From contig JBDRZU010000001.1 in NCBI GenBank assembly GCA_039804105.1, forward strand, positions 704,001 through 768,000: a stretch of DNA of 64,000 nucleotides, given 5' to 3'. Source of the DNA: a candidate division WOR-3 bacterium. Lineage in GTDB: Bacteria > Hydrothermota > 32-111. Position numbers and translations under genes: made by a program. Shown piece by piece: positions 4,900 through 27,689 of the stretch. The first letter of the stretch is position 1; each line of letters starts with the position of its first letter. The notes under the pieces were generated by a model. That model was not told the origin of the DNA. It made no database searches and saw only the letters and a list, made by a program, of their open reading frames with translations.

Positions 4900-4901
4900 A
4901 G

Positions 4902-5579: not shown

Positions 5580-5598
5580 ACAATCTCCCTTTTTTTTG

Positions 5599-6324: not shown

Positions 6325-6331
6325 ATTCTTC

Positions 6332-6405: not shown

Positions 6406-6429
6406 ATTTTATGATAAGGTATAAAAGAG

Positions 6430-6501: not shown

Positions 6502-6504
6502 ATT

Positions 6505-12527: not shown

Positions 12528-13583
12528 TCATTCTCCATTTGGCAAAAAGTATGGATCAAAATCCATATTCATCTGTAAAGCACCTTTTACTCTTATAAAA
12601 TCAGCAGGAGTAACAAAAACATCGATATCTGTAGGTGCGGGAATTTCAAATCTTCCTTTAAATTTGAATGTTGAATATCTGAACAAACTATCAAGTTCAT
12701 GTGTTATATCAATGTTGAGGTTACTGTAAACTCCTGTGCCTGTTGCCCTTCCAATACTATCTTTTGGTGTTTGAGCAAGCAAAAATGTATCTGAAAAAAC
12801 AATGTTTCCAACTGAATCGTATAATAACAGAATAAAATTTGAACTTATTGGTAGTCTATTCCATATATCAAGATTTAATCTGACCCAATTTATCATATTC
12901 AAAGGTGACGACTCTGGTGGCGCAAATGGTAATGTCTGCTCTTTTACTACAGTCATAACTCTATCACCTGTGAGTTTTGCCTGAAATGCGATCATTGAAT
13001 ATGCTTCAAGAGAATCAACAAAAGTTTGCCCTGAATCGATCTGCACCTCTATTTCATGGTAATAATCTCCAATCGGGAAATCATCAACTGAATATGTATA
13101 TAAAGTATCAAGGAAAGATCTTTGGTTGAAAAACACCTCAACTGTATCAAGATATATAAGTCGTCCACTCGAATACATTCTGTGTATCAATCTTCCACCA
13201 GTTGTAAATGGCACTTTCCCCCAGAATCTTACAAAGTTATGGACTTTGTTTATCGTTGAGGTGAAATATGTTGAATCTCTTGAGGTATCTATCCATTCCT
13301 CAGGCAACAATTCTTCAATGTTTATACTAATTTTGATTGTATCACTTTTGCCATTGAGATGAGCTGCGTTGATCCATTTTTCTCTTTGTGTATATCCAAA
13401 AACAGTATCTCCTTTTATAGAAATTCGTTCAGGATGATCAAGTGCAACTTCAAGAACGGTCATCAAAGTATCACCTATTGGAAGAGAATAAGTCAAATTC
13501 TCAACAACAGGTGGTTTTTTGGGAAGTGGGATTGAACAGGAAATAAAAAGAAATATTAAAAAACAAAACAATATTTTTTTCAT
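12528..13583 (-). CDS. Hypothetical lipoprotein
   Basis: GGAGG RBS, MKKILF...FISC lipobox. Confidence 0.7.
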   Translation of the reverse strand: MKKILFCFLIFLFISCSIPLPKKPPVVENLTYSLPIGDTLMTVLEVALDHPERISIKGDTVFGYTQREKWINAAHLNGKSDTIKISINIEELLPEEWIDTSRDSTYFTSTINKVHNFVRFWGKVPFTTGGRLIHRMYSSGRLIYLDTVEVFFNQRSFLDTLYTYSVDDFPIGDYYHEIEVQIDSGQTFVDSLEAYSMIAFQAKLTGDRVMTVVKEQTLPFAPPESSPLNMINWVRLNLDIWNRLPISSNFILLLYDSVGNIVFSDTFLLAQTPKDSIGRATGTGVYSNLNIDITHELDSLFRYSTFKFKGRFEIPAPTDIDVFVTPADFIRVKGALQMNMDFDPYFLPNGE

Positions 13584-13643
13584 TTCACCTCCAGACATTT
13601 TAATTATTTTATTCTCTTTTATAAAATCAGTCAATAAAAAGAA

Positions 13644-14453
13644 TCAATGTCTTTTTTCAAATAAAATGATTGTATAATCAATTATGAAATTTAAAAGTTT
13701 GAAGATAAGATAAAAAGAAAATGAAAATGTAAAAATTTCAAAAAAAGAGAAGGGATACAAAAGCGTCACTTTCCTTAAAAATATACCAGAGAATGAACAA
13801 ACAAGAAAAGATATTAAAATATCATAATAAAGATATTCAGCACCTTTTTTTATAGAATAGATTATCCTTGGTATTACCATAAAGGGTAAACATAGAAAAA
13901 AATATCCATGCATATATGAGAATATGAAAAGGAAAATTTTTTCAATCTCCTCAATATAGTAATAATATTTGTCTTTTACAACTTTAATCCTCAAAATACC
14001 ATACAAACTTCTGATAAGATATTTTAAAAAATAAAGAATGAAAATAAGACCTATCATAAGATAGATCATTTTAAAAACAAAACCATTTTTATACTTTTGG
14101 AGAATAAAAAAATTTGATAGAGCAGAAAGAAACAAAATAACAAAAAAATGGAACAACTGATCAAGTATAAAATTTATTCCATTATCAAGATTATTTTTAC
14201 TTTTCAAAAGATCAATAAAGTAATGGGAAAAAAATGTAAAAAGAGAAAATAGTGTTGAGAAAAAAAAATTTTTTGAAAACAAGAAAAGTGAAACAAAAGT
14301 TGGTAAAAGAATAAAAAAAGAATGTAGAAATAAACCAATCTTACTCTTTATTTTGAGACGAAATATTTGATCAGTTTGAAAAATAAAGTCACCCAAAAGG
14401 TGACCCAACAAAAGAATTGTAATTATATCAACATCAGGAATAAAACTATTCAT
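13644..14453 (-). CDS. DUF3307-like membrane protein
   Basis: GHLLGDFIFQT, H..ID..K and DQLFH motifs. Confidence 0.75.
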   Translation of the reverse strand: MNSFIPDVDIITILLLGHLLGDFIFQTDQIFRLKIKSKIGLFLHSFFILLPTFVSLFLFSKNFFFSTLFSLFTFFSHYFIDLLKSKNNLDNGINFILDQLFHFFVILFLSALSNFFILQKYKNGFVFKMIYLMIGLIFILYFLKYLIRSLYGILRIKVVKDKYYYYIEEIEKIFLFIFSYMHGYFFLCLPFMVIPRIIYSIKKGAEYLYYDILISFLVCSFSGIFLRKVTLLYPFSFFEIFTFSFSFYLIFKLLNFIIDYTIILFEKRH

Positions 14454-14892
14454 CCTTTACAACCGAAAGGTTTAATACCCCTATAACCTCCGGATGTAAT
14501 TTTATATTCACTGTATAATCACCCAACCTCTTTATAGGTTCATCAAGCAAAACCGCATGTTCATCTATTTTGATCCCTTTTGCTTCCAATTCCTCACAGA
14601 TCAATTTTTTTGAAACTGAACCATAAAGAGTATCATCATCATGAACTTTTTGTTTTATGGTTAAAGTTATCGAGGAAAGTTTATCTTTTGCTTGAAGTGC
14701 TATCTCTTTATTTTTCAATTCTTTCTGTTCATATTTTATCTTTTCCTGTTGAAACCTTTTCAGATTGTTTTCAGAATACTCATAAGCGAGTTTGTTTGGT
14801 ATCAAATAGTTTCTTGCAAATCCATCCTTTACATTTACAACATCACCTCTTTTACCAAGATTTTGAACATTTTCTCTCAATATAACTTTCAT
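14446..14892 (-). CDS. rplI: 50S ribosomal protein L9
   Basis: MKVILRENVQNLGKRGDVVNVKDGFARNYLIP. Confidence 0.98.
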   Translation of the reverse strand: MKVILRENVQNLGKRGDVVNVKDGFARNYLIPNKLAYEYSENNLKRFQQEKIKYEQKELKNKEIALQAKDKLSSITLTIKQKVHDDDTLYGSVSKKLICEELEAKGIKIDEHAVLLDEPIKRLGDYTVNIKLHPEVIGVLNLSVVKDE

Positions 14893-14901
14893 ACACGACT
14901 C

Positions 14902-15171
14902 CTATCTCATATTTTCATCAACATATGGAAGAAGTGCCATCTGTCGTGCAGTTTTTATCGCTCTTGCGACCTCTTTTTGATGTTTTTCACAAAGTCCGGT
15001 AGCTTTTCTTGGCAATATTTTTCCTCTATCGTTTATAAATTTTGATAAGAACTGGATATTTTTATAATCTATTTTTTCTTTTCTGGTACAAAGCTTACAA
15101 ACTTTTACCTTTTTTGCACCATTTCTTGAATCTGAAGAACCGTTGTTCTCTTTAGAATGGAATGGACTCAT
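14902..15171 (-). CDS. rpsR: 30S ribosomal protein S18 (Zn-binding type)
   Basis: CKLC...IDYKN...GKILPRKATGLCEKHQ...AR..ALLPY. Start placed at MSPF. Confidence 0.96.
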   Translation of the reverse strand: MSPFHSKENNGSSDSRNGAKKVKVCKLCTRKEKIDYKNIQFLSKFINDRGKILPRKATGLCEKHQKEVARAIKTARQMALLPYVDENMR

Positions 15172-15628
15172 CAGTACCTCCGTTTTCAATTTCTTCTATT
15201 TCATTAAAATCTTTTTCTACATCATCTATTATCTTATCATAGGAAACATCATTAACTTCACCTTCAAGGTCAGAAACTTCTCTTGATAAAAAGTAGATCT
15301 TTGTTGCTCTGATCTGAAAGGAAACCTTTTTTTCATGTGTTCTCTTATCCTCATAATTGTTCGCTTCAAGAGATCCTTCGACTATCACAGGTGTTCCAGT
15401 TTTCAATCTCTTTTCAAGATTATCTTCAAATTTTGTAAAATATGATACACTGATAAAAAGTGGATTATCTTTCCATTCTCCATTTTTGTCCTTATATCTT
15501 CTTGAAGATGCAAGACGAAAACCAATTACACCGGTATTATCTGATGTGTACCTTTTCTCAGCATCCTTTGTTACTCTTCCAGCGATAATGATTCTATTTA
15601 GATTCGGAAGGTTTATTTTTTCACCCAT
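15152..15628 (-). CDS. ssb: Single-stranded DNA-binding protein
   Basis: LNRIIIAGRVTKD, acidic tail ending IPF, position between rpsF and rpsR. Confidence 0.95.
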   Translation of the reverse strand: MGEKINLPNLNRIIIAGRVTKDAEKRYTSDNTGVIGFRLASSRRYKDKNGEWKDNPLFISVSYFTKFEDNLEKRLKTGTPVIVEGSLEANNYEDKRTHEKKVSFQIRATKIYFLSREVSDLEGEVNDVSYDKIIDDVEKDFNEIEEIENGGTDESIPF

Positions 15629-15925
15629 TTATACCTTCACTTCATCATTCTTTTTAATCATATATCTCCATATTGTTTCATCAAGTTTTATTTCTCTTCT
15701 GAGTTCCTCAACTTTCAATGGATCGAGGTTAAAGTTTATCAAAATAAAATGCCCTTGAGCAGTTTTGTTTATTTCGTATGTAAGTTTTTCAATACCTTTA
15801 TCCTCTACATTTTCAACTTTACCTGCAAGTTCCTCAATCCATTTTTTAAAACTGGAAATCCTTTCTTCAAGAACTTCCTTAGATAATGTAGGATCATAGA
15901 TGATCAAAATTTCATAGTTAACCAA
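15629..15925 (-). CDS. rpsF: 30S ribosomal protein S6
   Basis: YEILIIYDP, KLTYEINK, synteny. Confidence 0.93.
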   Translation of the reverse strand: MVNYEILIIYDPTLSKEVLEERISSFKKWIEELAGKVENVEDKGIEKLTYEINKTAQGHFILINFNLDPLKVEELRREIKLDETIWRYMIKKNDEVKV

Positions 15926-15937
15926 AATTTCCTCCTG

Positions 15938-16494
15938 TTATTTTTCTTCTTTTTTATTAATTATACTCATAGATTTTTCAAATCCATTTTCAACTATTGT
16001 GTAAATATGTTCTATTCCTTTTTCTAGAACTTTATTGTAATCATCTTCTTTCATTTTTCCTAAAACAAAATCTTTATCCTTCTTTTCTTCAAACTCTCCG
16101 ATGCCAACTCTTAACCTCGCAAAATTTTCAGTTCCAAGATGGTATATTATTGACTTTAATCCATTGTGACCACCATCTGAACCTGATAATCTTAACCTAA
16201 AAGTGAAGAGTGATATATTAAAATCATCAACAATTATAAGAAGATTTTTTAAATCGATCTTATAATAGTTTAAAAACTCTACAACAGCGATTCCACTCTC
16301 ATTCATATAAGTTGTTGGAACGACTAAAAATAACCCATCTTTCAAAGAACATTCAGAAAAAAAAAGTGCCCTTTACCTGTTTTAAATTTCAACTGCTCTT
16401 TTTTAGCAAAACCAATAATGATTTCTTTTCCTATATTGTGCCTTGTCTTTTCATAAATTTTATCAGGATTTCCGAGACCAACAAGAGCAAACAT
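15938..16494 (-). CDS. pth: Peptidyl-tRNA hydrolase, with apparent 1-nt frameshift in A9 run at 16357-16365
   Basis: N-terminus MFALVGLGNPDKIYEKTRHNIG is in one frame. PTTYMNESG, GGHNGLKS and RLRVGIG are in another. Adding 1 nt gives a 185-aa protein. Confidence 0.93.
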
Positions 16495-16503
16495 ATAACC
16501 CCA

Positions 16504-17193
16504 TCACTTCTTTTCTTTCTTCTCTTTTTCTTTCTCTTTTCCTTTATCTTCTTTTTCTTCCTCTTCTTCACCCTCTTCTTTCTTTTCCCTGATGAGTTCT
16601 GGCTCTTTTGCTTCCTCTTCAGGTTTTGGTGCTTCTTCAACATACGCCTTTGGAGCAAGAATAGTCACAACAACCTCTTCTGGATTTTCGACGATTTCAA
16701 ACTTTTCAGCCTTTATATCTTTCACATGTATTGAATCACCTATTGCAAGTTCTGAAATATCAACTTCAACATGTGATGGTATGTCTGCTGGCAAACATTT
16801 GATTTCAAGATCTCTGAGAAGGTGCTCAACTATTCCACCCTCTTTAACTCCCTTTGCTGAACCTTTTAGAATGATCGGTACTGTAAGTTTCAATTTTTCA
16901 GATTTATGGATTATCTGAAAATCGATATGTAAAATTCTGTTTGTTCTAGGGCTTCTGAAAATCTCTTTTATGATCGCAAGAAAATTATCTTTTCCCATCT
17001 TAATATTTATAAGAGATTTCTCTCTTCCAATTGCGTGAAACATCTTATTCAACTCAACCTCATCGACAGAGAACAACCTGTTCTCCTCTTTGTGTCCATA
17101 TGCGACACATGGAATTTTGTTATTCTTTCTTAAGAGGGTAAGAATATGTTTACCCTTTTCTCTTTTTTCAACTGGTAAATCGTATTGAAGCAT
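16504..17193 (-). CDS. rplY: 50S ribosomal protein L25/Ctc
   Basis: IPCVAYG, HIDF, GVKEGG, charged C-terminal tail, prs-rplY-pth synteny. Confidence 0.95.
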   Translation of the reverse strand: MLQYDLPVEKREKGKHILTLLRKNNKIPCVAYGHKEENRLFSVDEVELNKMFHAIGREKSLINIKMGKDNFLAIIKEIFRSPRTNRILHIDFQIIHKSEKLKLTVPIILKGSAKGVKEGGIVEHLLRDLEIKCLPADIPSHVEVDISELAIGDSIHVKDIKAEKFEIVENPEEVVVTILAPKAYVEEAPKPEEEAKEPELIREKKEEGEEEEEKEDKGKEKEKEKKEKK

Positions 17194-17201
17194 TTATCCT
17201 C

Positions 17202-18131
17202 CTAATCAAAAAGTGCACTGATAGATTCTTTATTATAAACTCTTTTTATAGCATTCGCAAAAAGTTCTGCCATAGACAAAACTTCTATTTTTTCGATCCT
17301 CTTCTCCTCAGGTATCACAACACTATCCGAAGTGTAAAGTTTATCTATAGGTGAATTTTTGAGTTTTGCAATAGCATCACCTGAAAGCAAAGGATGTGTC
17401 ACACATGCTATTATCCTTTTAGCACCATTATACTTTAAAGCTTCAGCTGCTTTTGTGATTGTTCCCGCAGTATCGATTATATCGTCAACCATTAAAACAT
17501 TCTTATCCTTAACCTCTCCAACAACATGCATCACTTCGGATTGGTTTGGAGAACTTCTTCTTTTATCGATAACAGCAATCGGTAGATTGTTCAGTTTTTT
17601 CGCTATATTTCTTGCTCTGTTAACTCTTCCTGCATCAGGAGAAACCACAACCGTATTGTCAAGTTTTTCGTTCTTTAAAAGATGTTCAACAAAAACTGGT
17701 GCAGAATAAAGATGATCAACTGGAACATTGAAAAAACCCTGAATCTGTTCAGCATGAAGTTCAAGTACCATAACCCTTGAAACACCCGCTGCTGTCAAAA
17801 GGTTTGCAACAACTCTTGAACTTATTGGAACCCTTGGAGCATCCTTTTTATCCTGTCTTGCATATCCATAATATGGTATGACCGCAGTTATCATATCCGC
17901 TGATGCTCTCCTCAAAGAGTCAATGATAAAGATAAGTTCAAGAAGATTATCCGCTGGTGGATTTGTTGACTGTATAACAAACACATGGCTTCCCCTTACA
18001 GATTCATTAATCTGAACCCTTATCTCACCATCAGAAAATTTTGTAATAAGAGAATCAACAAGTGGAATATTCAACTTGTTAGATATCTCTTTTGCTATTT
18101 TGGCATTCGAATTTCCCGCTATAAGTTTCAT
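17202..18131 (-). CDS. prs: Ribose-phosphate pyrophosphokinase
   Basis: FSDGE, PYYGYARQD, VSPDAG, VDDIIDTAGT. True start MKLIAGNSN lies after the tRNA. Confidence 0.97.
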   Translation of the reverse strand: MKLIAGNSNAKIAKEISNKLNIPLVDSLITKFSDGEIRVQINESVRGSHVFVIQSTNPPADNLLELIFIIDSLRRASADMITAVIPYYGYARQDKKDAPRVPISSRVVANLLTAAGVSRVMVLELHAEQIQGFFNVPVDHLYSAPVFVEHLLKNEKLDNTVVVSPDAGRVNRARNIAKKLNNLPIAVIDKRRSSPNQSEVMHVVGEVKDKNVLMVDDIIDTAGTITKAAEALKYNGAKRIIACVTHPLLSGDAIAKLKNSPIDKLYTSDSVVIPEEKRIEKIEVLSMAELFANAIKRVYNKESISALFD

Positions 18132-18150
18132 ATAAAACTCACATTTTTCT

Positions 18151-18223
18151 CTGGGGCGGTAGGATTCGAACCTACGAATGCGGGAACCAAAATCCCGTGG
18201 CTTGCCAGCTTGCCGACACCCCA
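18151..18223 (-). tRNA. tRNA-Gln(TTG), CCA not encoded
   Basis: TGGGGTG...CGGGA-TT-TTG-GT-TCCCG...GTTCGAATC...CGCCCCA-G. Conserved position upstream of prs. Confidence 0.93.
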
Positions 18224-18257
18224 ATAAGTGTTAGTTAAATTTTACTTCCTAAAAGTT

Positions 18258-18518
18258 TTACTTCTTACTCACTTCCTGCTGATATTTTTCAAGAACGACT
18301 TTTTCAATCTTCTGTCTCATCTCATTGTTGATAGGATGGGCAATGTCTCTATATGTCCCATCTTTAGCCCTTCTTGAAGGCATGGAAATGAAAAGACCTT
18401 TTTTTCCGTCGATAATCTTTAAACCCCTGATAACAAATGCGTTGTCAAAAGTTACATTAGCAAATGCTTTCAACTTGGGTTCATCTCTTAATGTGATTCT
18501 TACTTCGGTAATTTCCAT
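18258..18518 (-). CDS. spoVG: SpoVG nucleic-acid-binding regulator
   Basis: MEITEVRI...LKAFANVTFDNAFVIRGLKII...MPSRR...YRDIAHPIN. Confidence 0.95.
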   Translation of the reverse strand: MEITEVRITLRDEPKLKAFANVTFDNAFVIRGLKIIDGKKGLFISMPSRRAKDGTYRDIAHPINNEMRQKIEKVVLEKYQQEVSKK

Positions 18519-19429
18519 TCTTCCTCCTGAATTTTTGTTAGTAGTTCTTTTTTTATCCTATTTCGAGTTATCGGGGTGGTAAAAAAAATCCTGTTCCCAC
18601 CGAACTCTTTTCTTAGCGAATCAAAATGTTTTTCATTTTCAAAGATCGCAAAAATTGAAGATCCACTTCCACTCATAAGTGAAAGTAAAGGTTCATACTT
18701 TGTTATCCTATTTTTTATATCCTTCAATAAAGGATACCTTTCAAAAACAACCGTTTCAAAAATGTTATAAAAATTTTTGAAAGAACTTTTCAAATTTTTA
18801 TAATCAATTTTTGAATTTATAATATTATAAGATTTTCTATCATTTGTCAAGTGTTTAGATAGAAGGTTATATGCCTCTTTCGTTGAAACCTGAATATCTG
18901 GAGATATGATAAAAATTTTAAGATTTTCAATCTCAGGTATATCTAAAAATTCAAGTTCCTCACCTATACCAGTTCCTATTGCACTCCCACCTTCAACAAG
19001 AAATGGACAATCAGCACCGACCTTCAAAGAAAGTTGCCTAAGTTCTTCTTTTTCAAAGGGATAATCATAATAAAAATTTAAAAAATTGAGTATCGAAGAA
19101 CCATCAGCACTTCCACCACCAAGACCAGCACCTGATGGAATCTTTTTGTTGACTTTAAAATGGAAATCAACCCATTCACTTTCAGATTTGTTTAAAAAGG
19201 ATTCTTTAAAAATATGATACGATTTGTAAATAGTGTTGTTTTTCGGATCTATCATGCAATCACTGTTAAAAAATTCTATGTTTAAATCTTTACTTTCATA
19301 AACCTCGATATTATCAAAAAGATCTATCGATTGAAAAAAGGTGAGAATCTCATGAAAACCATCATCACGCCTGTTCAACACATCAAGAAAAAGATTTATT
19401 TTACAGAAAGATTTTACAAGATATCTCAT
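18500..19429 (-). CDS. ispE: 4-diphosphocytidyl-2-C-methyl-D-erythritol kinase
   Basis: KINLFL.V..RR.DGFHE, IPSGAGLGGGSAD, GADCPF, MSGSGS. Confidence 0.95.
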   Translation of the reverse strand: MRYLVKSFCKINLFLDVLNRRDDGFHEILTFFQSIDLFDNIEVYESKDLNIEFFNSDCMIDPKNNTIYKSYHIFKESFLNKSESEWVDFHFKVNKKIPSGAGLGGGSADGSSILNFLNFYYDYPFEKEELRQLSLKVGADCPFLVEGGSAIGTGIGEELEFLDIPEIENLKIFIISPDIQVSTKEAYNLLSKHLTNDRKSYNIINSKIDYKNLKSSFKNFYNIFETVVFERYPLLKDIKNRITKYEPLLSLMSGSGSSIFAIFENEKHFDSLRKEFGGNRIFFTTPITRNRIKKELLTKIQEEEWKLPK

Positions 19430-20157
19430 TTTCTGAAAATGTTAACTACCTCAGAGAATTCAAAAATTTTATCAGGATCTTTTTCTATAGAATTCCCTGT
19501 TACGATAAAATCTGCTCCACTTTCAAGAATTTCAAGTGCTCTTTTTCGATCCTTTATACCTCCACCGACAATCAGTGGTTTTGATAAAATCTTTTTTGCA
19601 CTCTTAATAAAATTTAACGGAACAGTTTTTTCAGATCCACTCCCTGCCTCAAGGTAAACTATTTTGAAATTCGATATTTCTGAGAGATAGATATAGTTCA
19701 AAAAAGTTTTCATATCTTTTATAAAGTTTATAGGCACCCTTTTTGCAACACTCGTCTTTTTATCATCCATACAGAGTATATATGATGTTGGGATGATCTT
19801 TAATGATGATTTGTATAGATTTTCAGCACCGTTGATATGTTCTCCAATTATATAGTCAAGTTTTTTTGTATTCAAAAGAAAAAGCAATAAAAGAAAATCT
19901 GCATTTTTCGATATCTGATAGTGAGAACCAGGGAAAATAAAAGTTGGTTTTTTTGTTTTTTCTTTTATCGAAAGTATGAATCTATCAAAACCTTTAATCT
20001 TCTTATCACTTCCACCGATAAATATCCCATCAACTTTTGAACTATTTATATTTTTTATGATTCTTTCAAAATCTATTTTTTTTGCTGGATCAATTAAAAC
20101 AAAATATCCTTTTTTGTTTTCGTTGAAAATCTTTTCTATAGGGGAAATTACTTCCAC
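19426..20157 (-). CDS. Geranylgeranylglyceryl-phosphate synthase (GGGPS/PcrB family, group II-like)
   Basis: LIDP, IGGS, IFPG, YLEAGSG, VGGGI and ADFIVTGN motifs of the G1P-prenyltransferase TIM barrel. Confidence 0.88.
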   Translation of the reverse strand: MEVISPIEKIFNENKKGYFVLIDPAKKIDFERIIKNINSSKVDGIFIGGSDKKIKGFDRFILSIKEKTKKPTFIFPGSHYQISKNADFLLLLFLLNTKKLDYIIGEHINGAENLYKSSLKIIPTSYILCMDDKKTSVAKRVPINFIKDMKTFLNYIYLSEISNFKIVYLEAGSGSEKTVPLNFIKSAKKILSKPLIVGGGIKDRKRALEILESGADFIVTGNSIEKDPDKIFEFSEVVNIFRK

Positions 20158-21362
20158 AGCAACCTCATAATTATTTTCAAGATATATTTGTCCTTCATCA
20201 AACTACCCATAAAGTTTATAACCATACCTATCGCTTTAACTGAAGATTTAAAAGAATAAATCGTATAATAAAAATCTGATGAAAGTATTTTCTTACCATT
20301 GAAAAGATTTATCGCTGATGTAAAGAATTTATCCCTCTCCTCATCGGTCATTTCAAGCAACATCTCTCTTAACTGGTTCTGTTTTTTAATAGAGTAACTG
20401 TTATCCTTTTCAACAAGTTCCTGATATTGGGACATCCGCTTTGCTGAAAAATCTTTTCCTTTTAAAACGGTGTTTGCAACTATCGCTGCAAAGTTCGCCG
20501 TTCTTAAAGCATTATCTATACCACCACCTGTTATCGGATCAGCAGCTCTTGCACTATCACCTATAACCATAACCCTTTCAGAATACATTTTCGAAAGTTG
20601 ATTAACACTCACACATCCGGGAAATTCTCTTAAAATTTTTGCATCAGGATAATATTTTTGCCTGTATTCATTCAAAAGTTTGTAAGGTTTATCACAATCT
20701 ATAGAAGAAGTTATTCCTACTCCAAAGTTCGCTTCATTTTTTCCTCGTGGGAAAACCCAAAGATAACCACCTGGAGCAACCGACGGTGTGAAATCGAATA
20801 TTATCTCTTCATCATTTATTTTTGGATCATATATTATCTGCTGATAGCATGAATACATATCGTTAAGATTACAAACCGAGTTAATTCCAACTTTATATGG
20901 CAGATATGATTCAACTCCATCAGCTATTATGAGAATTTTTGCAAAATATTCTTCTCCATTTTCGAGTATAACTTTAACATAATCTTTTTCTACCTTGGCA
21001 TCAACGACAAAACTATTTGTTTTTATTTCAAAATTGTTTTCCTCTGTAACTTTCTGTGCAATAAACTTTTCAAACTTTGATCTATCTATTATAAGTCCCA
21101 TATCAGGTATATCAACATTCGCTTCAAGTTCTTTATATTTCACTTTCAGTTTTGTAAACCTGTTTCTTATGAAAGGGAAATCTGTCTCTTTAAAAAAATG
21201 TTTTAATGTGTTGTTCGAAATCCCTTCAGCACAGATTATAGGTTCTCCTATAATATCATCCTTTTCAAACACTATAACTTTATAGTTTTTATCTATCTTA
21301 TAAGCAGCATAAAGACCCGCAGGTCCACCACCAACAATGATCACATCATAATTTTTATCCAT
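20148..21362 (-). CDS. Geranylgeranyl reductase family FAD oxidoreductase (DGGR-like)
   Basis: YDVIIVGGGPAG, CAEGIS, IDRSKFE, IIADG, PGGYLWVFP (PxxYxWxFP), GDSA...DPITGGGI. Confidence 0.85.
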   Translation of the reverse strand: MDKNYDVIIVGGGPAGLYAAYKIDKNYKVIVFEKDDIIGEPIICAEGISNNTLKHFFKETDFPFIRNRFTKLKVKYKELEANVDIPDMGLIIDRSKFEKFIAQKVTEENNFEIKTNSFVVDAKVEKDYVKVILENGEEYFAKILIIADGVESYLPYKVGINSVCNLNDMYSCYQQIIYDPKINDEEIIFDFTPSVAPGGYLWVFPRGKNEANFGVGITSSIDCDKPYKLLNEYRQKYYPDAKILREFPGCVSVNQLSKMYSERVMVIGDSARAADPITGGGIDNALRTANFAAIVANTVLKGKDFSAKRMSQYQELVEKDNSYSIKKQNQLREMLLEMTDEERDKFFTSAINLFNGKKILSSDFYYTIYSFKSSVKAIGMVINFMGSLMKDKYILKIIMRLLWK

Positions 21363-21531
21363 TTTTACTCAACGCTCCTACTGGACAAACTTTTATACAT
21401 TTATCACATTTAACACAACCTTCGTTTATCTGTAACCTATTCTTATACATCACGATAACCTTCACCGGACAGACAGCAACACAACCACCACAAAGTCCAC
21501 ATTTATCTTTTTCTACTTTTATATATTCCAT
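21355..21531 (-). CDS. 2x[4Fe-4S] ferredoxin, 58 aa (not in ORF track)
   Basis: MEYIKVEKDKCGLCGGCVAVCPVKVIVMYKNRLQINEGCVKCDKCIKVCPVGALSKNG*, with two CxxCxxCxxxCP motifs. Confidence 0.93.
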   Translation of the reverse strand: MEYIKVEKDKCGLCGGCVAVCPVKVIVMYKNRLQINEGCVKCDKCIKVCPVGALSKNG

Positions 21532-21533
21532 AC

Positions 21534-24092
21534 CTACTCCAAAATTATCTTTTTCAAATTTTCTAACATATTTTCATCAAACTCTTTAGAAACAGAACTA
21601 CCTGACGCAAGATCTTTTCTTCCACCACCTTTTCCCTTTAATATCTGGTTGATTTTTTCTATCACTTTCTTTGCATCCAGGTCAGTATTTGAACTGAAAA
21701 CTAAATAATTTATCTTATCTTCATCCTTACTCAAAAGTGTTCCACACACATGTTTCTCTTTACTTTTAATATTATCCATAATTTTCTTAAGGATGTCAAT
21801 AGTATAACCCTCGAAAAATCCAAAAACAGAAAGGTTACCATTCATTTTCTTCCCTTCGGATATCAATCGATCGGTTATAGAATTTATTTCATAAGTTAAA
21901 TATTTTTCGTTCTCTTTTTTCAACCTGTTATTTTCTTCAATTATTTTTTCAAATCTTTTTTCGAATTCATTAACATCTTTGATCTTATGTTTCAAAAACA
22001 ACATTTCTATTTTGTCGTTCAACTCTTGATAACTCTTTAAAGCGTATAAAGAAGTAAGAGCTTCTATCCTTCTGATACCTGTTGCTATTGATTCCTCTTT
22101 AACTATTCTAAAAAGTCCTATCTCTCCGGTTCTTTCTACATGTGTGCCACCGCACAATTCTTTCGAAACATTTTTTATGGAAACAACTCTAACTTCTCTG
22201 TCATATTTTTCGTTGAAAAAAGCCAGAGCACCTTCTTTTATCGCTTCTTCATATGGCATAATCCTCTTTTCAACTGGAATATTCTGGGATATTATCTCGT
22301 TGACACTATTTTCTATCAACTCTTTCTCCTCATCAGTCAACGGTTTAAAATGTAAAAAATCAAATCTGAATCTATCATAAGATACAAAAGAACCTTCCTG
22401 CCTTACATGTTCTCCAAGAACCTTTCTTAAAACTGAATGTAAAATGTGAGTCGCTGTATGGTTTCTCTGTATGAGATATCTTCTTTTAATATCAACATTT
22501 TGTTTATAGATTTTCCCTTTTTCAAATTCACCTAAAATCTTCTTTCCGATGAGCATATTTCCAAGTGGTGATTTGATGCAGTTTAGAACTTCAAACTCAA
22601 ATTGATCAGAAAAAACTGTTCCTGTATCTGCTATCTGTCCACCAGATTCAGCATAAAAAGGTGTTTCTTTCATCAAGAGTTCATACAAAGAATCTCCAAG
22701 ATCTCTATATCTTAAAATATATGATTCATTCTCAAGTGTCTCATACCCAACAAACTTTGAAACATCATCTTCGAACACAACAAAATCTTTTTTTTCAAAA
22801 TCTGTAAACACTTTATCCTTCCTGGATCTTTCTCTTGCTTCCTCAAGTAGTTGTTCAAATCCATTCTGATCGATTTCAAGGTTATCCTCTTCAGCCATCT
22901 GTTTTAGAAGATCGATAGGAAATCCAAATGTATCATAAAGTAAAAATAATGTTTTTCCATCAACAATATTCCCTTTCAGATTTTTCTTATAATCGTTGTA
23001 AAGTTGCATTCCTTGACCTATAGTTTTTAAAAATCTCTCCTCTTCTGATTTTATTATATTCTTCACTTTATCAACTGTATATAAAAGATATGGGTATTGA
23101 GTTTTCATTATTTTAACCACCTCAGATGTAAGATCATAAAGGAATGGTTTCTCTATCCCCATTTTAAATCCAAACCTAACCGCTCTTCTAAGAACTCTTC
23201 TAATAACATAACCTCGTCCCTCATTTTCAGGTATCACACCATCTGAGATTGAAAATGTAAGGGCTCTTATGTGGTCAGCTATAGAGTTTATCTCTTTTTT
23301 ATACTTTTCATAATCAAGATTGTATGTTTCAGAAAGTGTATTTATGATCGGCTTAAACAGATCAGTTTCGAAAATCGACTTTTTATTCTGCATGACAGTA
23401 GCAAGTCGTTCGAGTCCCATTCCAGTATCAACCCCTTTATTTTTAAGCAAAGTCCTATTTCCAGAACTATCCTGGTTGAACTGAGGGAAAACTATGTTCC
23501 ATATTTCAACATATCTTTTACAATCGTTTTCGATAGAACATGGTTTCTTATTTTCAAGTTCTTTCCCAAAATCATAAAATATTTCAGTTGAAGGCCCACA
23601 AGCACCTGTCCCTCCTGCTGGTCCCCAGAAATTCGTTCTGTCATCCATTTTGATTATTCTTTCAACTGGAATTTTTATAATATCCTTCCATATCCTGTAA
23701 GCTTCACTATCATCCTTATGAACAGTTACAAACAGTTTATCTTTATCTATCTTCAACTCATCAGTTAAAAACTCCCATCCCCATTTTATAGCTTCAAGTT
23801 GGAAGTAATCGTTGAAGGAAAAATTCCCAAGCATTTCAAAAAAAGTATCATGAAAAGGTGAAATCCCAACCTCTTCTAGATCAACCACCCTTAAACATTT
23901 TTGAATCGATGTGGCTCTTTTAAAATCAAAATCAACAAGACCTGCAAACATTGGCTTAAATTGAACCATTCCAGCAACAGTGAAAAGAAGTGTAGGGTCA
24001 TTTTCGGGTATTAAAGATGATGATTCAAAAACTCTATGCTCTCTATCCTTAAAAAATTTGATAAACTTTTCTCTTAAAATCTGACTTTCCAC
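21534..24092 (-). CDS. alaS: Alanine--tRNA ligase
   Basis: DPTLLFTVAGMVQFK, FFEMLGNFSF, DTGMGLER, HTATH, ELCGGTH, GKGGGR. Confidence 0.98.
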   Translation of the reverse strand: MESQILREKFIKFFKDREHRVFESSSLIPENDPTLLFTVAGMVQFKPMFAGLVDFDFKRATSIQKCLRVVDLEEVGISPFHDTFFEMLGNFSFNDYFQLEAIKWGWEFLTDELKIDKDKLFVTVHKDDSEAYRIWKDIIKIPVERIIKMDDRTNFWGPAGGTGACGPSTEIFYDFGKELENKKPCSIENDCKRYVEIWNIVFPQFNQDSSGNRTLLKNKGVDTGMGLERLATVMQNKKSIFETDLFKPIINTLSETYNLDYEKYKKEINSIADHIRALTFSISDGVIPENEGRGYVIRRVLRRAVRFGFKMGIEKPFLYDLTSEVVKIMKTQYPYLLYTVDKVKNIIKSEEERFLKTIGQGMQLYNDYKKNLKGNIVDGKTLFLLYDTFGFPIDLLKQMAEEDNLEIDQNGFEQLLEEARERSRKDKVFTDFEKKDFVVFEDDVSKFVGYETLENESYILRYRDLGDSLYELLMKETPFYAESGGQIADTGTVFSDQFEFEVLNCIKSPLGNMLIGKKILGEFEKGKIYKQNVDIKRRYLIQRNHTATHILHSVLRKVLGEHVRQEGSFVSYDRFRFDFLHFKPLTDEEKELIENSVNEIISQNIPVEKRIMPYEEAIKEGALAFFNEKYDREVRVVSIKNVSKELCGGTHVERTGEIGLFRIVKEESIATGIRRIEALTSLYALKSYQELNDKIEMLFLKHKIKDVNEFEKRFEKIIEENNRLKKENEKYLTYEINSITDRLISEGKKMNGNLSVFGFFEGYTIDILKKIMDNIKSKEKHVCGTLLSKDEDKINYLVFSSNTDLDAKKVIEKINQILKGKGGGRKDLASGSSVSKEFDENMLENLKKIILE

Positions 24093-24095
24093 ATT

Positions 24096-24821
24096 TCACC
24101 TCTTTTTGATTAGATTTTTTAAAAGTATCCAATAGTATTGCAATTTTATATAAATATGCAAAACCATCAATAATATAAAAATAATCCCTGTAAAATTATG
24201 AAGATATACAAGTTTTGCAATATTTTTAAGATGAACCATTCCATACTCTCTTAATACAAGTAAAAGAGAGGTAAAGAGAACTGGAACAAAAATTATTATC
24301 AACAGAATGTTAACTATTCTGTTTATATCGCAAACATCAACGGGGATTTTTTTTCTTTTTGAAAAATAGATAAGCACCATCCCAAAAAGAAACAGAGGGA
24401 GAAGAACGAATATAAAATATTTATCACCCTCACTATAGGATTCATCCAAATTATCTTTTTTTTCATGTTCGTAAGCTGTTGGCAAATTTGTATCAGTTTT
24501 TTCAACTGGATTAAAATTTTTATATTCTGGCTGATTCTGTTCAGTTTCATGACCAGTCAAATTTTCCTGAACTTTTGCTTCATCCGTTTTTTCCTCTAAA
24601 ACCGTTTCACTTTTGTTATCAGTGCTAACATTCAAATTCGTATCCTGAACACTATCAGTAAGTTCCTGTGAAAGATCACATATAGAATCATTATTTTCAT
24701 CTGTATATCTACCACATCTTCCCGGATATGGATCATTTTTTTCATCAAATGGACAATATCTTTCAGCAAAGATGTGAACGATAACAAATATCATTAAAAA
24801 TGTTAGTACTATTTTTTTCAT
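24096..24821 (-). CDS. Membrane protein with N-terminal Cys motif and His-containing C-terminal TM bundle (DUF4405-like)
   Basis: Signal peptide, CPFDEKNDPYPGRCGRYTDENNDSICD, acidic linker, 3 TMs with LH...LH. Confidence 0.6.
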   Translation of the reverse strand: MKKIVLTFLMIFVIVHIFAERYCPFDEKNDPYPGRCGRYTDENNDSICDLSQELTDSVQDTNLNVSTDNKSETVLEEKTDEAKVQENLTGHETEQNQPEYKNFNPVEKTDTNLPTAYEHEKKDNLDESYSEGDKYFIFVLLPLFLFGMVLIYFSKRKKIPVDVCDINRIVNILLIIIFVPVLFTSLLLVLREYGMVHLKNIAKLVYLHNFTGIIFILLMVLHIYIKLQYYWILLKNLIKKR

Positions 24822-24854
24822 AGGTTTATAAAATATCACAAGAAGGATAAATTG

Positions 24855-25574
24855 TCAATGTTTATAGATCTTTCTATAACCCTTTAAAAATCTTATCCTC
24901 TCCTCTTTAGAAAATCTTTCAGTTGCATAATTTATTGTTATAGAAGAAAGATCTTCATAATTTTCGTTTAAAAATTTTTTCAAGATATTTTCACCACAAT
25001 TTTTTCCAACTTCTCTTAACATCCAACCTGTTGCTTTTTTCAAAAGTTCATTTTGATCCTTGATCAATTTTTTTAAAATCTTTAAAGGAAAATCACATTT
25101 TTTTCTTTTTATAAAATAGAACAGTGAAACAATAGAGATTCTCTTCTCCCATAAATTTTTAGAATCTGAAAGTTTTTCTATTATACCGTATTCATTATTT
25201 TCAAAAGAGTATCTTCCAAGAATTCTATAAGATGAAGTATCAACAAGATCCCAGTTGTTAACATATTTTAAGTTTTTAAGATAAAAATCTAAAATTTTTT
25301 CTTTTTCCTCTAAACTTTTCTCATACTTCATGACAAGTATATTCAAAGCAAGAAATCTTACCTCATGGTATTCTGAAGATATCAGGTTCTGTAAAACTTT
25401 CCAATCAACATCTTTATATTTCTTTGCAAAGAATTTTAAAGTTGGTGTATCTATCCCCAAGAATTCATCACCTTCTCCATACTCTCCCTTTTTCGTTTTG
25501 AAAAATCTTTTGTACACCATCTTTTTTTCTTCATCCTTCAATTCAAACAACTCTTTTAAAATTTTTGAATACAT
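24855..25574 (-). CDS. DNA alkylation repair protein (AlkD-like)
   Basis: RFFKT..GEYGEGDEFLG, NNWDLVD, KATGWMLREVGK. Confidence 0.9.
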   Translation of the reverse strand: MYSKILKELFELKDEEKKMVYKRFFKTKKGEYGEGDEFLGIDTPTLKFFAKKYKDVDWKVLQNLISSEYHEVRFLALNILVMKYEKSLEEKEKILDFYLKNLKYVNNWDLVDTSSYRILGRYSFENNEYGIIEKLSDSKNLWEKRISIVSLFYFIKRKKCDFPLKILKKLIKDQNELLKKATGWMLREVGKNCGENILKKFLNENYEDLSSITINYATERFSKEERIRFLKGYRKIYKH

Positions 25575-25579
25575 CTTTA

Positions 25580-26560
25580 TTAATAACCTTTTTCAAGATC
25601 AACTATATTTTTTAGTTTTTTTCCTTCAATGAGATTTTTAATATTTTCAATTGTAAAATCTACATCACCTTTTTCCGCCTCCTCTGTGTGTGCACCTTTA
25701 TGGGGTGATATTACAACATTCTCGAGTTCATATATCGGATAGGTCGAAGGTGGTTTTTTGTTCTCTTCTCCATCTTTTGGATAATTATACCAAACATCAA
25801 GTGCAGCACCTTTTAAAATTTTATTCTTTAAACTTTCATATAAAACTTTTTCATCAATTATTCTTCCTCTTGAAACATTCACAAGATATTTTCCCTCAAG
25901 TAAAGAAATATTCTTTTCATTTATTAAATTTTCACTCTCTTTCGTCAAAGGTAATGTTAATAAAACTATTTGACCAAACTTTAAACCTTCAGATAAATTA
26001 TCTGTTATAAAATCAAAATTTTCGAGATTCTCGTTTTTTTCAAGTTTTCTTTTCACTCCCATTATTTTGCAGTTAAAAACCTTTAGCAAACGAGCGAGTT
26101 CCTTTCCAATACTTCCTGTTCCAACTATGGTACATTTTTTTTCGCGTATCGTATCCCAGTATTCTTTGTAAAGTCCATCCCTATGCCAGATCCCTTTTTT
26201 AAGATCTTTATGAAAAATAACGATCTTTCCAAGAAGTGCAAGAGTCAATGCGAAAGCCCTTTCAGCAACATATTTTGTATTCTCATGAGAATTACAAACA
26301 ACAACATCTCTTTCTTTAAGAGTATCAAGCGGAAAATTGTTTAAACCAGCGTAGGGAACAAAAAGATATTTTAAATTTTTCGAAAATTCTATCTGCTCTT
26401 TTTTTAAACGATAAGTTATGAGAACATGTGTAAATTCGATTTCTTCCTTTTCAAATTCTCTTTTAACTTCTTTGAAAAGATGCTCTTTATAATTATGTTT
26501 CAATTCTTCTATCTTTTTTTTCCAGTATTCAGATGAACAACCTGCAAAAGTTATTTCCAT
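25580..26560 (-). CDS. D-isomer-specific 2-hydroxyacid dehydrogenase
   Basis: VGTGSIG, LPLT, NVSRG, ALDVW, SPH. Confidence 0.9.
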   Translation of the reverse strand: MEITFAGCSSEYWKKKIEELKHNYKEHLFKEVKREFEKEEIEFTHVLITYRLKKEQIEFSKNLKYLFVPYAGLNNFPLDTLKERDVVVCNSHENTKYVAERAFALTLALLGKIVIFHKDLKKGIWHRDGLYKEYWDTIREKKCTIVGTGSIGKELARLLKVFNCKIMGVKRKLEKNENLENFDFITDNLSEGLKFGQIVLLTLPLTKESENLINEKNISLLEGKYLVNVSRGRIIDEKVLYESLKNKILKGAALDVWYNYPKDGEENKKPPSTYPIYELENVVISPHKGAHTEEAEKGDVDFTIENIKNLIEGKKLKNIVDLEKGY

Positions 26561-26709
26561 AGAAATTATACTATCCGATTTATTCTTTTAGTCAACATTT
26601 GAAATTATAAAACTGATGATGTTATTGAATGAGACCAAAAAATCTATTTAATTCTTTCATCTAAAATGTTTCCAATATATTTTTTTATAAAAAGCCACCT
26701 ATATCTCTA

Positions 26710-26737
26710 TTGACAAAAAGAGGTTTAAATATATAAT
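26710..26737 (+). promoter_or_regulatory. sigma70 promoter of rpsT
   Basis: Perfect TTGACA-16 bp-TATAAT, AGGAGG at 26751-26756. Confidence 0.8.
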
Positions 26738-26760
26738 AAAGCAAAAAAATAGGAGGTAGT

Positions 26761-27012
26761 TTGCCAAAAAGTAAAGCGCAGGAAAAATCAGTCAGACAGA
26801 ATAAGGTTAGAAGAGAAAGAAACAGAAAAGAGAAGGAAAAAATCAAAAAGATTATGAAACAGGCACTTAAAGCCACAAGTGAGGAAGAAAAAATTAAGAT
26901 ATTAAAAGAAGGTTACAAAATAATAGACAAAGCTGCTTCAAAAAATGTTATAAAGAAAAACAATGCTGCAAGAAAAAAATCAAAAATTGCAAAAATTTTA
27001 AAAGTTAAATAA
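26761..27012 (+). CDS. rpsT: 30S ribosomal protein S20
   Basis: K..EKSVRQN..RR.RN...IDKAASKNVIKKNNAARKKS, TTG start. Confidence 0.95.
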   Translation: MPKSKAQEKSVRQNKVRRERNRKEKEKIKKIMKQALKATSEEEKIKILKEGYKIIDKAASKNVIKKNNAARKKSKIAKILKVK

Positions 27013-27017
27013 TCAAT

Positions 27018-27047
27018 AAAAAAACTCCGCATAAAAGCGGAGTTTTT
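27018..27047. terminator. Bidirectional intrinsic terminator between rpsT and tonB
   Basis: AAAAACTCCGC-ataaaa-GCGGAGTTTTT hairpin with A/T tails on both sides. Confidence 0.85.
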
Positions 27048-27071
27048 AATTTCCAACTTTTTATAAATATT

Positions 27072-27689
27072 TTATTTTGTTAATCTGAAAGTTATAGGAT
27101 ATGTTACATAACATCTTATAGGTAAATCTCTCGTCATCGCAGGAGACCATTTCAACTGGTATGCTGCCTTAACTGCAGCCTCATCAAGTAATGGATGAAC
27201 GCTTTTTAAAACTTTTACCTGTGATACTGTTCCATCCTTTTCAACAACAAGTTCAAGAAATACTGTTCCTTCAATTCCAAGTTGTCTCGCCATCTGTGGA
27301 TATTCAGGATCTATTCTTTGAATCAACTGTGGTGCCTGTTCATATATTCTAAAGATTTCACCTTCATATTTTTCAATATTTAGATCCTCTGTTTCAAATG
27401 TTGTCTGAATATCTATATTTTTTGTTACCTCTGATTCTTTCGTTGTTTCAACAATCTTTTTTGGGAGTTGAGGTTTTGAGATTTCTTGAGGTTCATTTAT
27501 TTTCTGTATCTGATCAGGTAACTTCTCCATTACGACTACATCCTTTTTCTCCTTCATTTTGTAGGGATTCGTTTTCAGTTTTGGAATAAAAAGGAAAAGT
27601 ATTATGAAAAGTATAAGTGTGGTCAAAAGTGATGATTTCACGAATGTAGGATACTTTTCTTTCAAATCATTTCTAATAAATTTTTCCAT
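27072..27689 (-). CDS. tonB: Energy transducer TonB
   Basis: N-terminal TM. C-terminal PEYPQMARQLGIEGTV...GTV...LDEAA...PITF. Confidence 0.9.
   Translation of the reverse strand: MEKFIRNDLKEKYPTFVKSSLLTTLILFIILFLFIPKLKTNPYKMKEKKDVVVMEKLPDQIQKINEPQEISKPQLPKKIVETTKESEVTKNIDIQTTFETEDLNIEKYEGEIFRIYEQAPQLIQRIDPEYPQMARQLGIEGTVFLELVVEKDGTVSQVKVLKSVHPLLDEAAVKAAYQLKWSPAMTRDLPIRCYVTYPITFRLTK

Follow-up and report, generated by a model that had tools for sequence, protein, structure and literature searches.

A ferredoxin–reductase–GGGPS–ispE gene module and the loss of gpsA in a WOR-3 family: a candidate route to saturated isoprenoid ether lipids on glycerol-1-phosphate

How does a bacterium come to keep archaeal-type ether-lipid genes inside a run of housekeeping genes, and what would it make with them? 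The genes in question encode a small ferredoxin, a geranylgeranyl reductase (GGR), a geranylgeranylglyceryl phosphate synthase (GGGPS) and IspE, a kinase of the methylerythritol phosphate (MEP) pathway, and they lie on the minus strand of a 64,000-nt stretch of DNA (hereafter the window; positions 704001–768000 of contig 1, JBDRZU010000001.1, assembly GCA_039804105.1) from a candidate division WOR-3 bacterium whose genome comprises 1.81 Mb on 2 contigs and is 85% complete. Gene content and synteny make it fairly probable, in our judgement, that these genes belong to a module for the biosynthesis of saturated ether phospholipids, with isoprenoid chains on sn-glycerol-1-phosphate (G1P), a dedicated ferredoxin and an inositol-phosphate head group. 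The family-level identities of the genes, their conserved synteny, their catalytic motifs and the co-occurrence of all parts are matters of observation. An earlier note, made from the letters of the window, had suggested G1P ether lipids from MEP-derived isoprenoids; as genetic potential this is largely supported, and each enzymatic step in it is a prediction.

The ferredoxin and reductase genes overlap by 8 nt (21355–21362), the reductase and GGGPS genes by 10 nt (20148–20157) and the GGGPS and ispE genes by 4 nt (19426–19429), and the coordinates of the open reading frames (ORFs) match the overlaps of the earlier note exactly. The ferredoxin start lies 2 nt from the stop of alaS, and ispE overlaps spoVG by 19 nt. 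Pfam and NCBIfam identities bear out the housekeeping run from alaS to spoVG and prs in which the note had placed the module (Table 1), and the three proteins that it had named all belong to the families it gave them. We sampled 40 genomes of the phylum: 13 of the own family (85–100% complete), 5 of its sister family (77–97%) and 22 others; these two families, with 18 genomes between them, make up the whole class. GGR, GGGPS and ispE are contiguous in all 13 family genomes, and the ferredoxin gene is found upstream in 12 of them, the contig of the thirteenth ending at that point; alaS stands directly upstream of the module in the family. Because GGR, GGGPS and ispE are adjacent in 13/13 family genomes with protein identities down to ∼40%, the arrangement is not due to chance. 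The GC content is 0.31–0.32 in the module region and 0.27–0.36 in the remainder of the window; a recent horizontal-transfer island was considered and ruled out by the uniform GC content and by the synteny throughout the family. We propose that the four genes are co-transcribed as a lipid module, and that translational coupling of ispE to GGGPS would tie the isoprenoid supply to the ether-bond step. Two variants of the module were seen, with typA between ferredoxin and GGR in one genus (G009) and a tandem ferredoxin–GGR duplicate in one species (G004).

The module is accompanied in every genome of the family by genes for a G1P dehydrogenase-like (G1PDH-like) protein and for a UbiA-type protein like digeranylgeranylglyceryl phosphate synthase (DGGGPS-like). 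GGR, PcrB (the family of GGGPS), the G1PDH-like and the DGGGPS-like protein were each found in 13/13 own-family and 0/5 sister-family genomes, and among the other 22 genomes in 14, 17, 9 and 18, respectively. Outside the family, GGR and GGGPS are adjacent in 5 of the 14 phylum genomes with a GGR match, once in the order alaS–ferredoxin–GGR–GGGPS. A wider survey of the neighbours of 80 bacterial GGGPS loci, mostly from Bacteroidota, found GGR beside GGGPS in seven (2 from the family, 3 from other WOR-3 and 2 from Poribacteria), ferredoxin beside it in three, and alaS directly upstream of it in nine (2 from the family, plus Kryptonia, Chitinispirillales and others). Judged from these gene orders, the link between alaS and GGGPS seems older than the insertion of ferredoxin and GGR. 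One Poribacteria locus holds lpxD, a second UbiA, a DGGGPS-like protein, ferredoxin, GGR and GGGPS in a compact cluster (2452–6732 of the locus), for which no description was found in the literature. The GGR frame in that locus is apparently interrupted near its start.

It is in the genes for glycerol-3-phosphate (G3P) that the family departs from its relatives. The sister family has the gene order der–plsY–gpsA–merR, and other families of the phylum have plsY–gpsA–merR or parts of it. Twelve of the 13 family genomes read der–plsY–merR–response regulator with plsY abutting merR, and in the 13th the locus is cut by a contig end; the copy in the own genome lies outside the window (Table 1). gpsA is cleanly deleted from der–plsY–gpsA–merR in this family. 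PF07479 found GpsA in 0/13 family genomes versus 25/27 of the other sampled genomes, the two misses being 77% and 87% complete, and a GpsA protein of the phylum, used as query, had no match in any of the 13. In the own genome, tblastn gave a best E-value of 1.7, and a hidden Markov model of five WOR-3 GpsA sequences, with which a left-out sister-family fragment scored 419.7, gave no protein more than 22.4 bits, its best match being a UDP-glucose dehydrogenase. The own-genome matches to PF01210, taken up as GpsA candidates, were likewise rejected as UDP-glucose dehydrogenases. Since six other phylum genomes carry all four archaeal-type genes and also GpsA, the loss of gpsA is specific to the family.

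Other sources of G3P were sought in the same genomes. GlpK and the DAO_C domain of GlpD/GlpO were found in 0/13 family genomes and GDPD in 0/5, GlpA gave one weak 81-bit match in 1/5, and the GlpT family reached at most 41.7 bits against a cut-off of 407.75 in the 13 genomes. A bacterial route to G3P for acyl lipids was not found among GpsA, GlpK, GlpD/GlpA, GDPD and GlpT; G3P may instead be taken up by an ABC-type system. The own genome has an orphan UgpB-like binding protein, whose only NCBIfam match is to NF008211 UgpB (145 bits; cut-off 411). The neighbours of its gene encode a DegP-like protease and a protein with a c-di-GMP-binding domain, and none of them is an ABC permease gene.

How the ether lipid would be made can be followed through the rest of the genome. 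The earlier note had seen neither DGGGPS nor G1PDH in the window, and a search of the genome found a gene like each on contig 2. The G1PDH-like protein matches NF002022 at 286.9 bits over model positions 5–347 of 350 and is, by its alignments, nearer to characterised G1PDH than to glycerol dehydrogenase: it matches the G1PDH entries 4RGQ, 4RFL and 5FB3 at 164.2, 163.3 and 147.9 bits (Methanocaldococcus jannaschii G1PDH at 164 bits) and the GldA entries at no more than 63.6 bits. Its best match in the PDB is 3CE9 (187.9 bits), which bears the depositor label glycerol dehydrogenase. This enzyme would convert dihydroxyacetone phosphate to G1P, to which the GGGPS-family enzyme would ether-link an all-trans prenyl diphosphate derived from the MEP pathway. 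The DGGGPS-like UbiA, which would attach the second chain, has the M. jannaschii DGGGPS 6M31 as its best PDB match (135.1 bits, E-value 3e-38), the next being chlorophyll synthase at 43.7 bits; its gene lies in an hflK–UbiA–uppP–yfcE cluster kept in 12/12 family loci. The reductase, fed by the ferredoxin of the overlapping gene, would saturate the double bonds, bacterial CdsA would activate the ether product, and a transferase like archaetidyl- or phosphatidylinositol-phosphate synthase would add the head group. For this last step the genome has a sole CDP-alcohol transferase, on contig 2, which scores 154.6 bits as archaetidylinositol-phosphate synthase (cut-off 180), 125.9 as phosphatidylinositol-phosphate synthase and 38.7 as pgsA; no PgsA-type enzyme was seen alongside it. 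The next gene is that of inositol-3-phosphate synthase (MIPS), 82–98% identical across the family, and the trio rsmI–transferase–MIPS is kept in 5/5 family genomes searched. We infer from these matches every enzymatic step, and with them the chain length, the G1P stereochemistry and the status of the product as a bulk membrane lipid. Upstream of the G1PDH-like gene, and overlapping its start, lies a gene for a membrane protein of 488 aa that matches neither a Pfam nor an NCBIfam family; it keeps this position in 8/12 family loci.

The same genes could in principle run in reverse, breaking down or salvaging archaeal lipids of a hot-spring community, an idea raised for bacteria without G1PDH by Coleman et al. 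(PMC6431249, in its accessible text) and in keeping with the presence of the stretch in runs labelled as hot-spring metagenomes. We hold this to be very improbable here: all 13 family genomes carry a G1PDH-like gene, the genes to which the module is coupled are ispE, which belongs to MEP biosynthesis, and housekeeping genes, and no lipase or ether-cleaving genes are linked to it.

The GGGPS-family protein meets its family models, with 123.2 bits for PF01884 PcrB (cut-off 23.9) and 139.9 bits for TIGR01768 (cut-off 113.25). Its closest solved structures are 4JEJ (120.3 bits), 6NKE (116.3), 6JO3 (114.4) and 4MM1 (90.1), and it matches PcrB (3VZX/1VIZ) at 49 bits and the Archaeoglobus fulgidus enzyme 2F6U at 43.6 bits. 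Peterhoff and co-workers are said to have named, in 2014, the groups of GGGPS in which 4JEJ is a bacterial group II enzyme. By these matches the protein of the window is group-II-like and not of group I, the PcrB or A. fulgidus type. The motifs quoted in the earlier note are present in the translation as VYLEAGSG, VGGGI and VTGN. Invariant in 12 sequences are D23, P24, Y168, G172-S173-G174, G198-G200 and G221, with E or D at position 170, and these residues we take to be the active-site and phosphate-binding motifs (DP, YLEAGSG, GGGI, GN). Like the Flavobacterium johnsoniae enzyme 4JEJ, the protein belongs to the TIM-barrel PcrB family with loops binding the phosphate of G1P; unlike the Bacteroidota GGGPS, whose 59 tree rows and their loci show no neighbouring GGR, those of the WOR-3 family form a long-branched clade of their own. 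This clade was fully supported in a quick IQ-TREE run of 92 bacterial GGGPS rows, with a stem of 1.26 changes per column and the remaining rows grouped by phylum; the tree holds bacterial rows only, without archaeal ones, its careful search is unfinished and it says nothing on origin. Transfer of geranylgeranyl (C20) to G1P is the reaction predicted for this protein, alongside a sole trans-prenyl synthase with a farnesyl diphosphate (FPP) synthase signature.

The reductase exceeds the cut-offs of its superfamily models (TIGR02032, 175.2 bits against 158.8; PF22578 GGR_cat, 63.7 against 27), and its translation reads PGGYLWVFP where the earlier note had quoted PxxYxWxFP. It ranks archaeal lipid-reductase models over BchP/ChlP (69.3 bits) and MenJ (50.1 bits), and its best PDB match is the lipid reductase 3OZ2 of Thermoplasma acidophilum (135.5 bits, E-value 3e-38, residues 4–346). 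Invariant in 14 reductases are G11, G13, P14, G16, C44, G199, Y200, W202, F204, G268, D269, D275, P276, G279 and G281, which make up the FAD motif GxGxxG, a Cys near the flavin, PxxYxWxFP and GD...DPxxGGG and are alignable to 3OZ2. With that enzyme it shares the FAD motif, a Cys before the EGxS motif, YxWxFP and GDxxR...DPxxGGGI; it differs from it in falling far under the Thermoplasmatales equivalog cut-off (162 versus 780) and in a distinct conserved C-terminal extension of the family. An atlas look-up, which serves as a lead only, gave nearest clusters that were mostly archaeal (Thermoplasmatota, Thorarchaeota, Methanobacteriota), with some from Chloroflexota. Clustering with MenJ, which the earlier note had named as a way for its proposal to fall, was not borne out by these scores (NF041160 162 bits, 3OZ2 135.5, MenJ 50). 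A quinone role is also argued against because no long-chain prenyl synthase is found in the 13 family genomes, and on both counts a MenJ-type function was ruled out. The linkage to GGGPS is the basis on which the reductase is predicted to reduce (D)GGGP-type lipids.

The ferredoxin has two CxxCxxCxxxCP motifs, and none of its 8 cluster cysteines varies among 8 orthologues. We modelled its complex with the reductase from alignments of the two proteins, including FAD and two 4Fe-4S clusters as riding ligands. The three models scored 0.92, 0.91 and 0.93, and none of 3 controls exceeded 0.00; the score of the models is a mark that was reached by 116/157 solved complexes and by 2/215 mismatched pairs, although this calibration is only rough here on account of our own alignments and the riding ligands. 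At least 97% of the contacts agreed between runs and the partner pLDDT was at least 92; the modelled interface brings the cluster loops of the ferredoxin (12–22 and 44–52) against residues 34–43, 150–173, 219–227 and 247–252 of the reductase. The model supports binding of ferredoxin to reductase without showing it, and we propose the ferredoxin as the electron donor. Reportedly, the GGR of Methanosarcina acetivorans has a ferredoxin encoded next to it, which Isobe and co-workers are said to have proposed in 2014 as its specific electron donor for full saturation. The small ferredoxin gene beside a lipid GGR is common to both cases; here the host is a bacterium, the pair is conserved together with GGGPS and ispE in one putative operon, and binding is predicted by the model. 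HydG and HydE, maturases of [FeFe]-hydrogenase, are encoded in the own genome, which suggests an anaerobe with a pool of reduced ferredoxin.

Another substrate for the pair has to be weighed at this point. The reductase and ferredoxin might act on some other polyprenyl compound, turning undecaprenyl-type carriers into dolichol-like ones or reducing the product of a UbiA paralogue, with the linkage to GGGPS reflecting shared isoprenoid metabolism. GGR-family enzymes are described as substrate-promiscuous in the accessible parts of PMC6309074 and PMC10821996, of the 14 genomes outside the family that match GGR, 9 lack a GGGPS within 1.5 kb of it, the DGGGPS-like gene stands beside uppP in 12/12 loci, and the own genome has two further UbiA paralogues, one of them overlapping an FAD oxidoreductase gene. 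Yet the GGR and GGGPS genes overlap by 10 nt and are adjacent in 13/13 family genomes, in five other phylum genomes and in two Poribacteria loci, and GGR, GGGPS, DGGGPS-like and G1PDH-like proteins are jointly present or absent in the two families of the class (13/13 versus 0/5), so that we regard this alternative as improbable and keep to the ether lipid as the likely substrate. Of the two paralogues, the very divergent one (43.6 bits, contig 2) is encoded by the gene that overlaps that of a 443-aa FAD/NAD-binding oxidoreductase; the other, the third UbiA of the genome, is located among polysaccharide genes.

Several findings weigh against a saturated ether phospholipid with C20 chains on G1P, the first of them concerning the chains. 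There is one trans-prenyl synthase per genome in 13/13 family genomes, and that of the own genome scores over the FPP-synthase model NF045485 (294.7 against 275) and under the CrtE geranylgeranyl diphosphate (GGPP) synthase model (257.4 against 460). All 13 synthases share HTYSLIH|DDLPxMDxDD, in which Tyr stands at −5 before the DDxxxxD motif and two residues are inserted. Tyr at −5 marks bacterial FPP synthases (C15); in type-II GGPP synthases the position is taken by Met or a small residue. Because of this Tyr and the match to the FPP-synthase model, a C20 substrate is not assured: the signature predicts either a bifunctional enzyme, in which case the chains may be C20 (phytanyl), or an unusual chain length, otherwise C15. 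UppS would compete for FPP from this sole synthase. The ‘phytanyl-type’ chains of the earlier note are not supported by a synthase of this kind, and a search of the genome for a GGPP synthase, which that note had put forward, leads back to the same enzyme. The note had also named CarS as a gene to look for. No CarS was found in the genome, where PF01864 gave only a sub-threshold 19.5 bits on cdsA, and cdsA is the only candidate for CDP-activation because of this.

On the same side of the balance, all four archaeal-type proteins (GGGPS, reductase, G1PDH-like and DGGGPS-like) lie under NCBIfam equivalog cut-offs. GGGPS scores 148.8 against 161.55 for TIGR01769, 145.1 against 353 for NF003202 and 200.9 against 247 for NF003198; the reductase, on archaeal digeranylgeranyl reductase models, scores 162.1 against 780 (NF041160), 126.5 against 580 (NF041080) and 79.8 against 700 (NF041385); the DGGGPS-like UbiA scores 218.5 against 269 (NF009523) and 182.2 against 296 (NF009521). 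The 286.9 bits of the G1PDH-like protein compare with a cut-off of 413, and all 22 matches to NF002022 in the 40-genome sample are sub-cut-off. The long stem branch of the GGGPS clade may mean that its substrate has changed, the reductase gene of one family genome or species (G003) has an in-frame TAG, and the good score of the ferredoxin–reductase model may partly reflect likeness to the solved FixC–FixX pair of 7KOE, to which both proteins have remote matches (reductase to 7koe_C, E-value 2e-9; ferredoxin to 7koe_D, E-value 1.1e-3). In EtfABCX, too, an FAD protein of the same superfamily is paired with a small 2x[4Fe-4S] ferredoxin-like partner; that system, however, carries out electron bifurcation to quinone, and the similarity is low (40.7 and 22.5 bits).

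The machinery for acyl lipids is kept as well: PlsX (5/5), PlsY (13/13, usually two), PlsC and FabD/FabG/FabF of type II fatty acid synthesis (FAS II) are present in the family, and acyl lipids may still dominate its membranes. The second PlsY, found in 12/13 family genomes, is 32% identical to the first, scores 127.8 bits for TIGR00023 (cut-off 137.2) and is encoded on contig 2, adjoining a secretin gene. A product of quite another standing is thus conceivable, a minor non-bilayer isoprenoid glycerol ether as in Bacillus PcrB/AraM, the membrane being acyl-glycerol made through PlsX/PlsY/PlsC on G3P from an unrecognised enzyme or from uptake. Bacillus subtilis AraM, PcrB and YvoF make a G1P isoprenoid ether which is dephosphorylated and acetylated to a mono-ether, its PcrB being a group I enzyme that uses a C35 chain. 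This precedent, together with the retained PlsX, PlsY, PlsC and FabF/FabG/FabD, the UgpB-like orphan binding protein and the sub-equivalog scores of all the archaeal-type enzymes, speaks for such an outcome, and B. subtilis is likewise a bacterium with a G1PDH and a PcrB-family enzyme. However, the Bacillus pathway lacks both a second prenylation and a reductase, and its PcrB reaches 49 bits against the GGGPS of the window; a mono-ether side product would not need the DGGGPS-like protein and the reductase that are kept with GGGPS in 13/13 genomes. Moreover, the module belongs to a housekeeping operon and shows translational coupling, GpsA, GlpK, GlpD/GlpA, GDPD and GlpT were not found, and the UgpB-like gene has no neighbouring permease genes. 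We consider the minor ether unlikely, and prefer the saturated ether phospholipid on G1P. The ‘mixed membrane’ of the earlier note holds insofar as GGGPS and DGGGPS-like genes occur in one genome with PlsX/PlsY/PlsC and FAS II, and falls short in that no G3P-forming enzyme was found.

What the loss of gpsA would mean for the membrane is a further question. It is possible, and we say so tentatively, that the family has, in its lipid backbone, passed to the other side of the lipid divide, with G1P as its only self-made glycerophosphate; its membrane would then be an archaeal-type ether membrane, or would consist of G1P-based acyl or ether–ester hybrid lipids. The inositol-phosphate head-group enzyme would need no G3P under such a reading, and, for the acyl or hybrid lipids, PlsC and the paralogues of PlsY could use G1P or the mono-ether as acyl acceptor. 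If true, G1P-based or ether/ester hybrid lipids would be something never seen in a natural bacterium, the family would be the first bacterium in nature whose lipid backbone falls on the archaeal side of the divide, and Pls enzymes acting on G1P-derived substrates would likewise be new. The own family and its sister family, in which gpsA is present and the four archaeal-type genes were not found, offer a natural pair for testing membrane homochirality, and the viability in nature of heterochiral or ‘wrong-handed’ membranes becomes directly testable.

Archaeal-type ether-lipid genes in FCB-group bacteria are known already, as the earlier note had stated for GGGPS (PMC7852524 and PMC6431249, in their accessible text). 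In the accessible text of Coleman et al. 2019 (PMC6431249), each of the 12 FCB phyla surveyed has GGGPS and DGGGPS, and G1PDH is confined to Fibrobacteres and Cloacimonetes; WOR-3 and TA06 are among the lineages named in their table. According to the text available of Villanueva et al. 2020 (PMC7852524), GGGPS and DGGGPS of Candidatus Cloacimonetes are active in Escherichia coli, GGR homologues are present, CarS and G1PDH are not, and co-localisation of GGGPS and DGGGPS among bacteria is seemingly restricted to Cloacimonetes. As far as these texts go, the WOR-3 family resembles FCB bacteria in GGGPS and DGGGPS, in a GGR near euryarchaeal ones, in the MEP pathway, in having no CarS with CdsA as presumed substitute, and in its fatty-acid and Pls genes. 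It differs from Cloacimonetes, where GGGPS and DGGGPS lie together and G1PDH is missing, in that GGGPS stands with ferredoxin, GGR and ispE, DGGGPS lies elsewhere and a G1PDH-like protein is found in 13/13; two prenyl synthases are reported for Cloacimonetes, whereas the WOR-3 family has one, with the FPP-synthase signature, and its deleted gpsA sets it apart from the Cloacimonetes/FCB set. New is what the family combines throughout: the whole gene set for a G1P ether, a ferredoxin coupled to it in the operon, a sole prenyl synthase of FPP-synthase type, an inositol head group and the deletion of gpsA. Literature searches turned up no bacterial lineage that has G1PDH but lacks gpsA, and the accessible parts of the WOR-3 genomics paper and of the paper on the first isolate (strain sy37, PMC12285271) say nothing about ether lipids, about geranylgeranyl or about fatty acids.

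Coordinates of the features are collected in Table 1.

Table 1. Features of the window (positions within the window) and of the rest of the genome (positions given by contig)
Feature	Position	Strand	Evidence
alaS (alanine-tRNA ligase), heading the run	21534-24092	-	TIGR00344 847 bits
Ferredoxin, 2x[4Fe-4S], 58 aa	21355-21531	-	PF00037 44.4 bits and related families
Geranylgeranyl-reductase-family FAD enzyme, 404 aa	20148-21362	-	TIGR02032, PF22578
GGGPS/PcrB-family protein, 243 aa, GTG start	19426-20157	-	PF01884, TIGR01768
ispE (CDP-methylerythritol kinase, MEP pathway), 309 aa	18500-19429	-	TIGR00154 196.8 bits (cut-off 138.7)
spoVG	18258-18518	-	PF04026 118.4 bits; NF009749 118.4 bits (cut-off 108)
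prs (ribose-phosphate diphosphokinase)	17202-18224	-	NF002320 445.3 bits
ORF of 247 aa	24096-24839	-	DUF4405 20.8 bits (sub-cut-off)
dxr (MEP pathway)	48825-49955	-	TIGR00243 329.4 bits (cut-off 315.7)
cdsA (bacterial CDP-diglyceride synthase)	49952-50932	-	NF008635 112.6 bits (under cut-off 385)
uppS (undecaprenyl diphosphate synthase)	50778-51497	-	NF011405 338.9 bits (cut-off 304)
gpsA-less der-plsY-merR locus	contig 1:360680-364297		
UgpB-like binding protein	contig 1:685989-687245		
Sole trans-prenyl synthase	contig 2:68918-69823		
HydG and HydE	contig 2:149847-153511		

Beyond prs the run continues with the genes for L25, pth, S6, ssb and L9 (Pfam), and the cdsA, uppS and dxr genes that the earlier note had listed were found at 48825–51497. 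The ORF of 247 aa, between alaS and a DNA-alkylation-repair gene, has no NCBIfam family besides its weak DUF4405 match. Within 13000–27500, promoter-like sites numbered 69 versus 63.7 ± 8.9 in shuffles and terminator-like sites 7 versus 5.0 ± 2.6; both are at chance level and give no operon boundaries. For a tetraether or membrane-spanning lipid synthase, 12 ORFs of at least 330 aa with CxxxCxxC were picked from the own genome, of which the 6 scanned (HydG, HydE, TIGR03960 and others) gave none over cut-off with NCBIfam, which may hold no Tes model. A 439-aa B12/radical-SAM protein reached only 60.9 bits for TIGR04072 (cut-off 360).

The phylum WOR-3 is Caldifarciminota in NCBI, and the lineage is also named Hydrothermota or Stahliibacteriota, according to the accessible text of the paper on the first WOR-3 isolate. 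Apart from the run marked as its possible source, two hot-spring metagenome runs of the same study contain 0.50 and 0.42 of the words of the stretch and all others at most 0.18, and no RNA run is listed among those that contain it. The host is an uncultured, probably anaerobic hot-spring bacterium, its hot-spring habitat resting on that one study.

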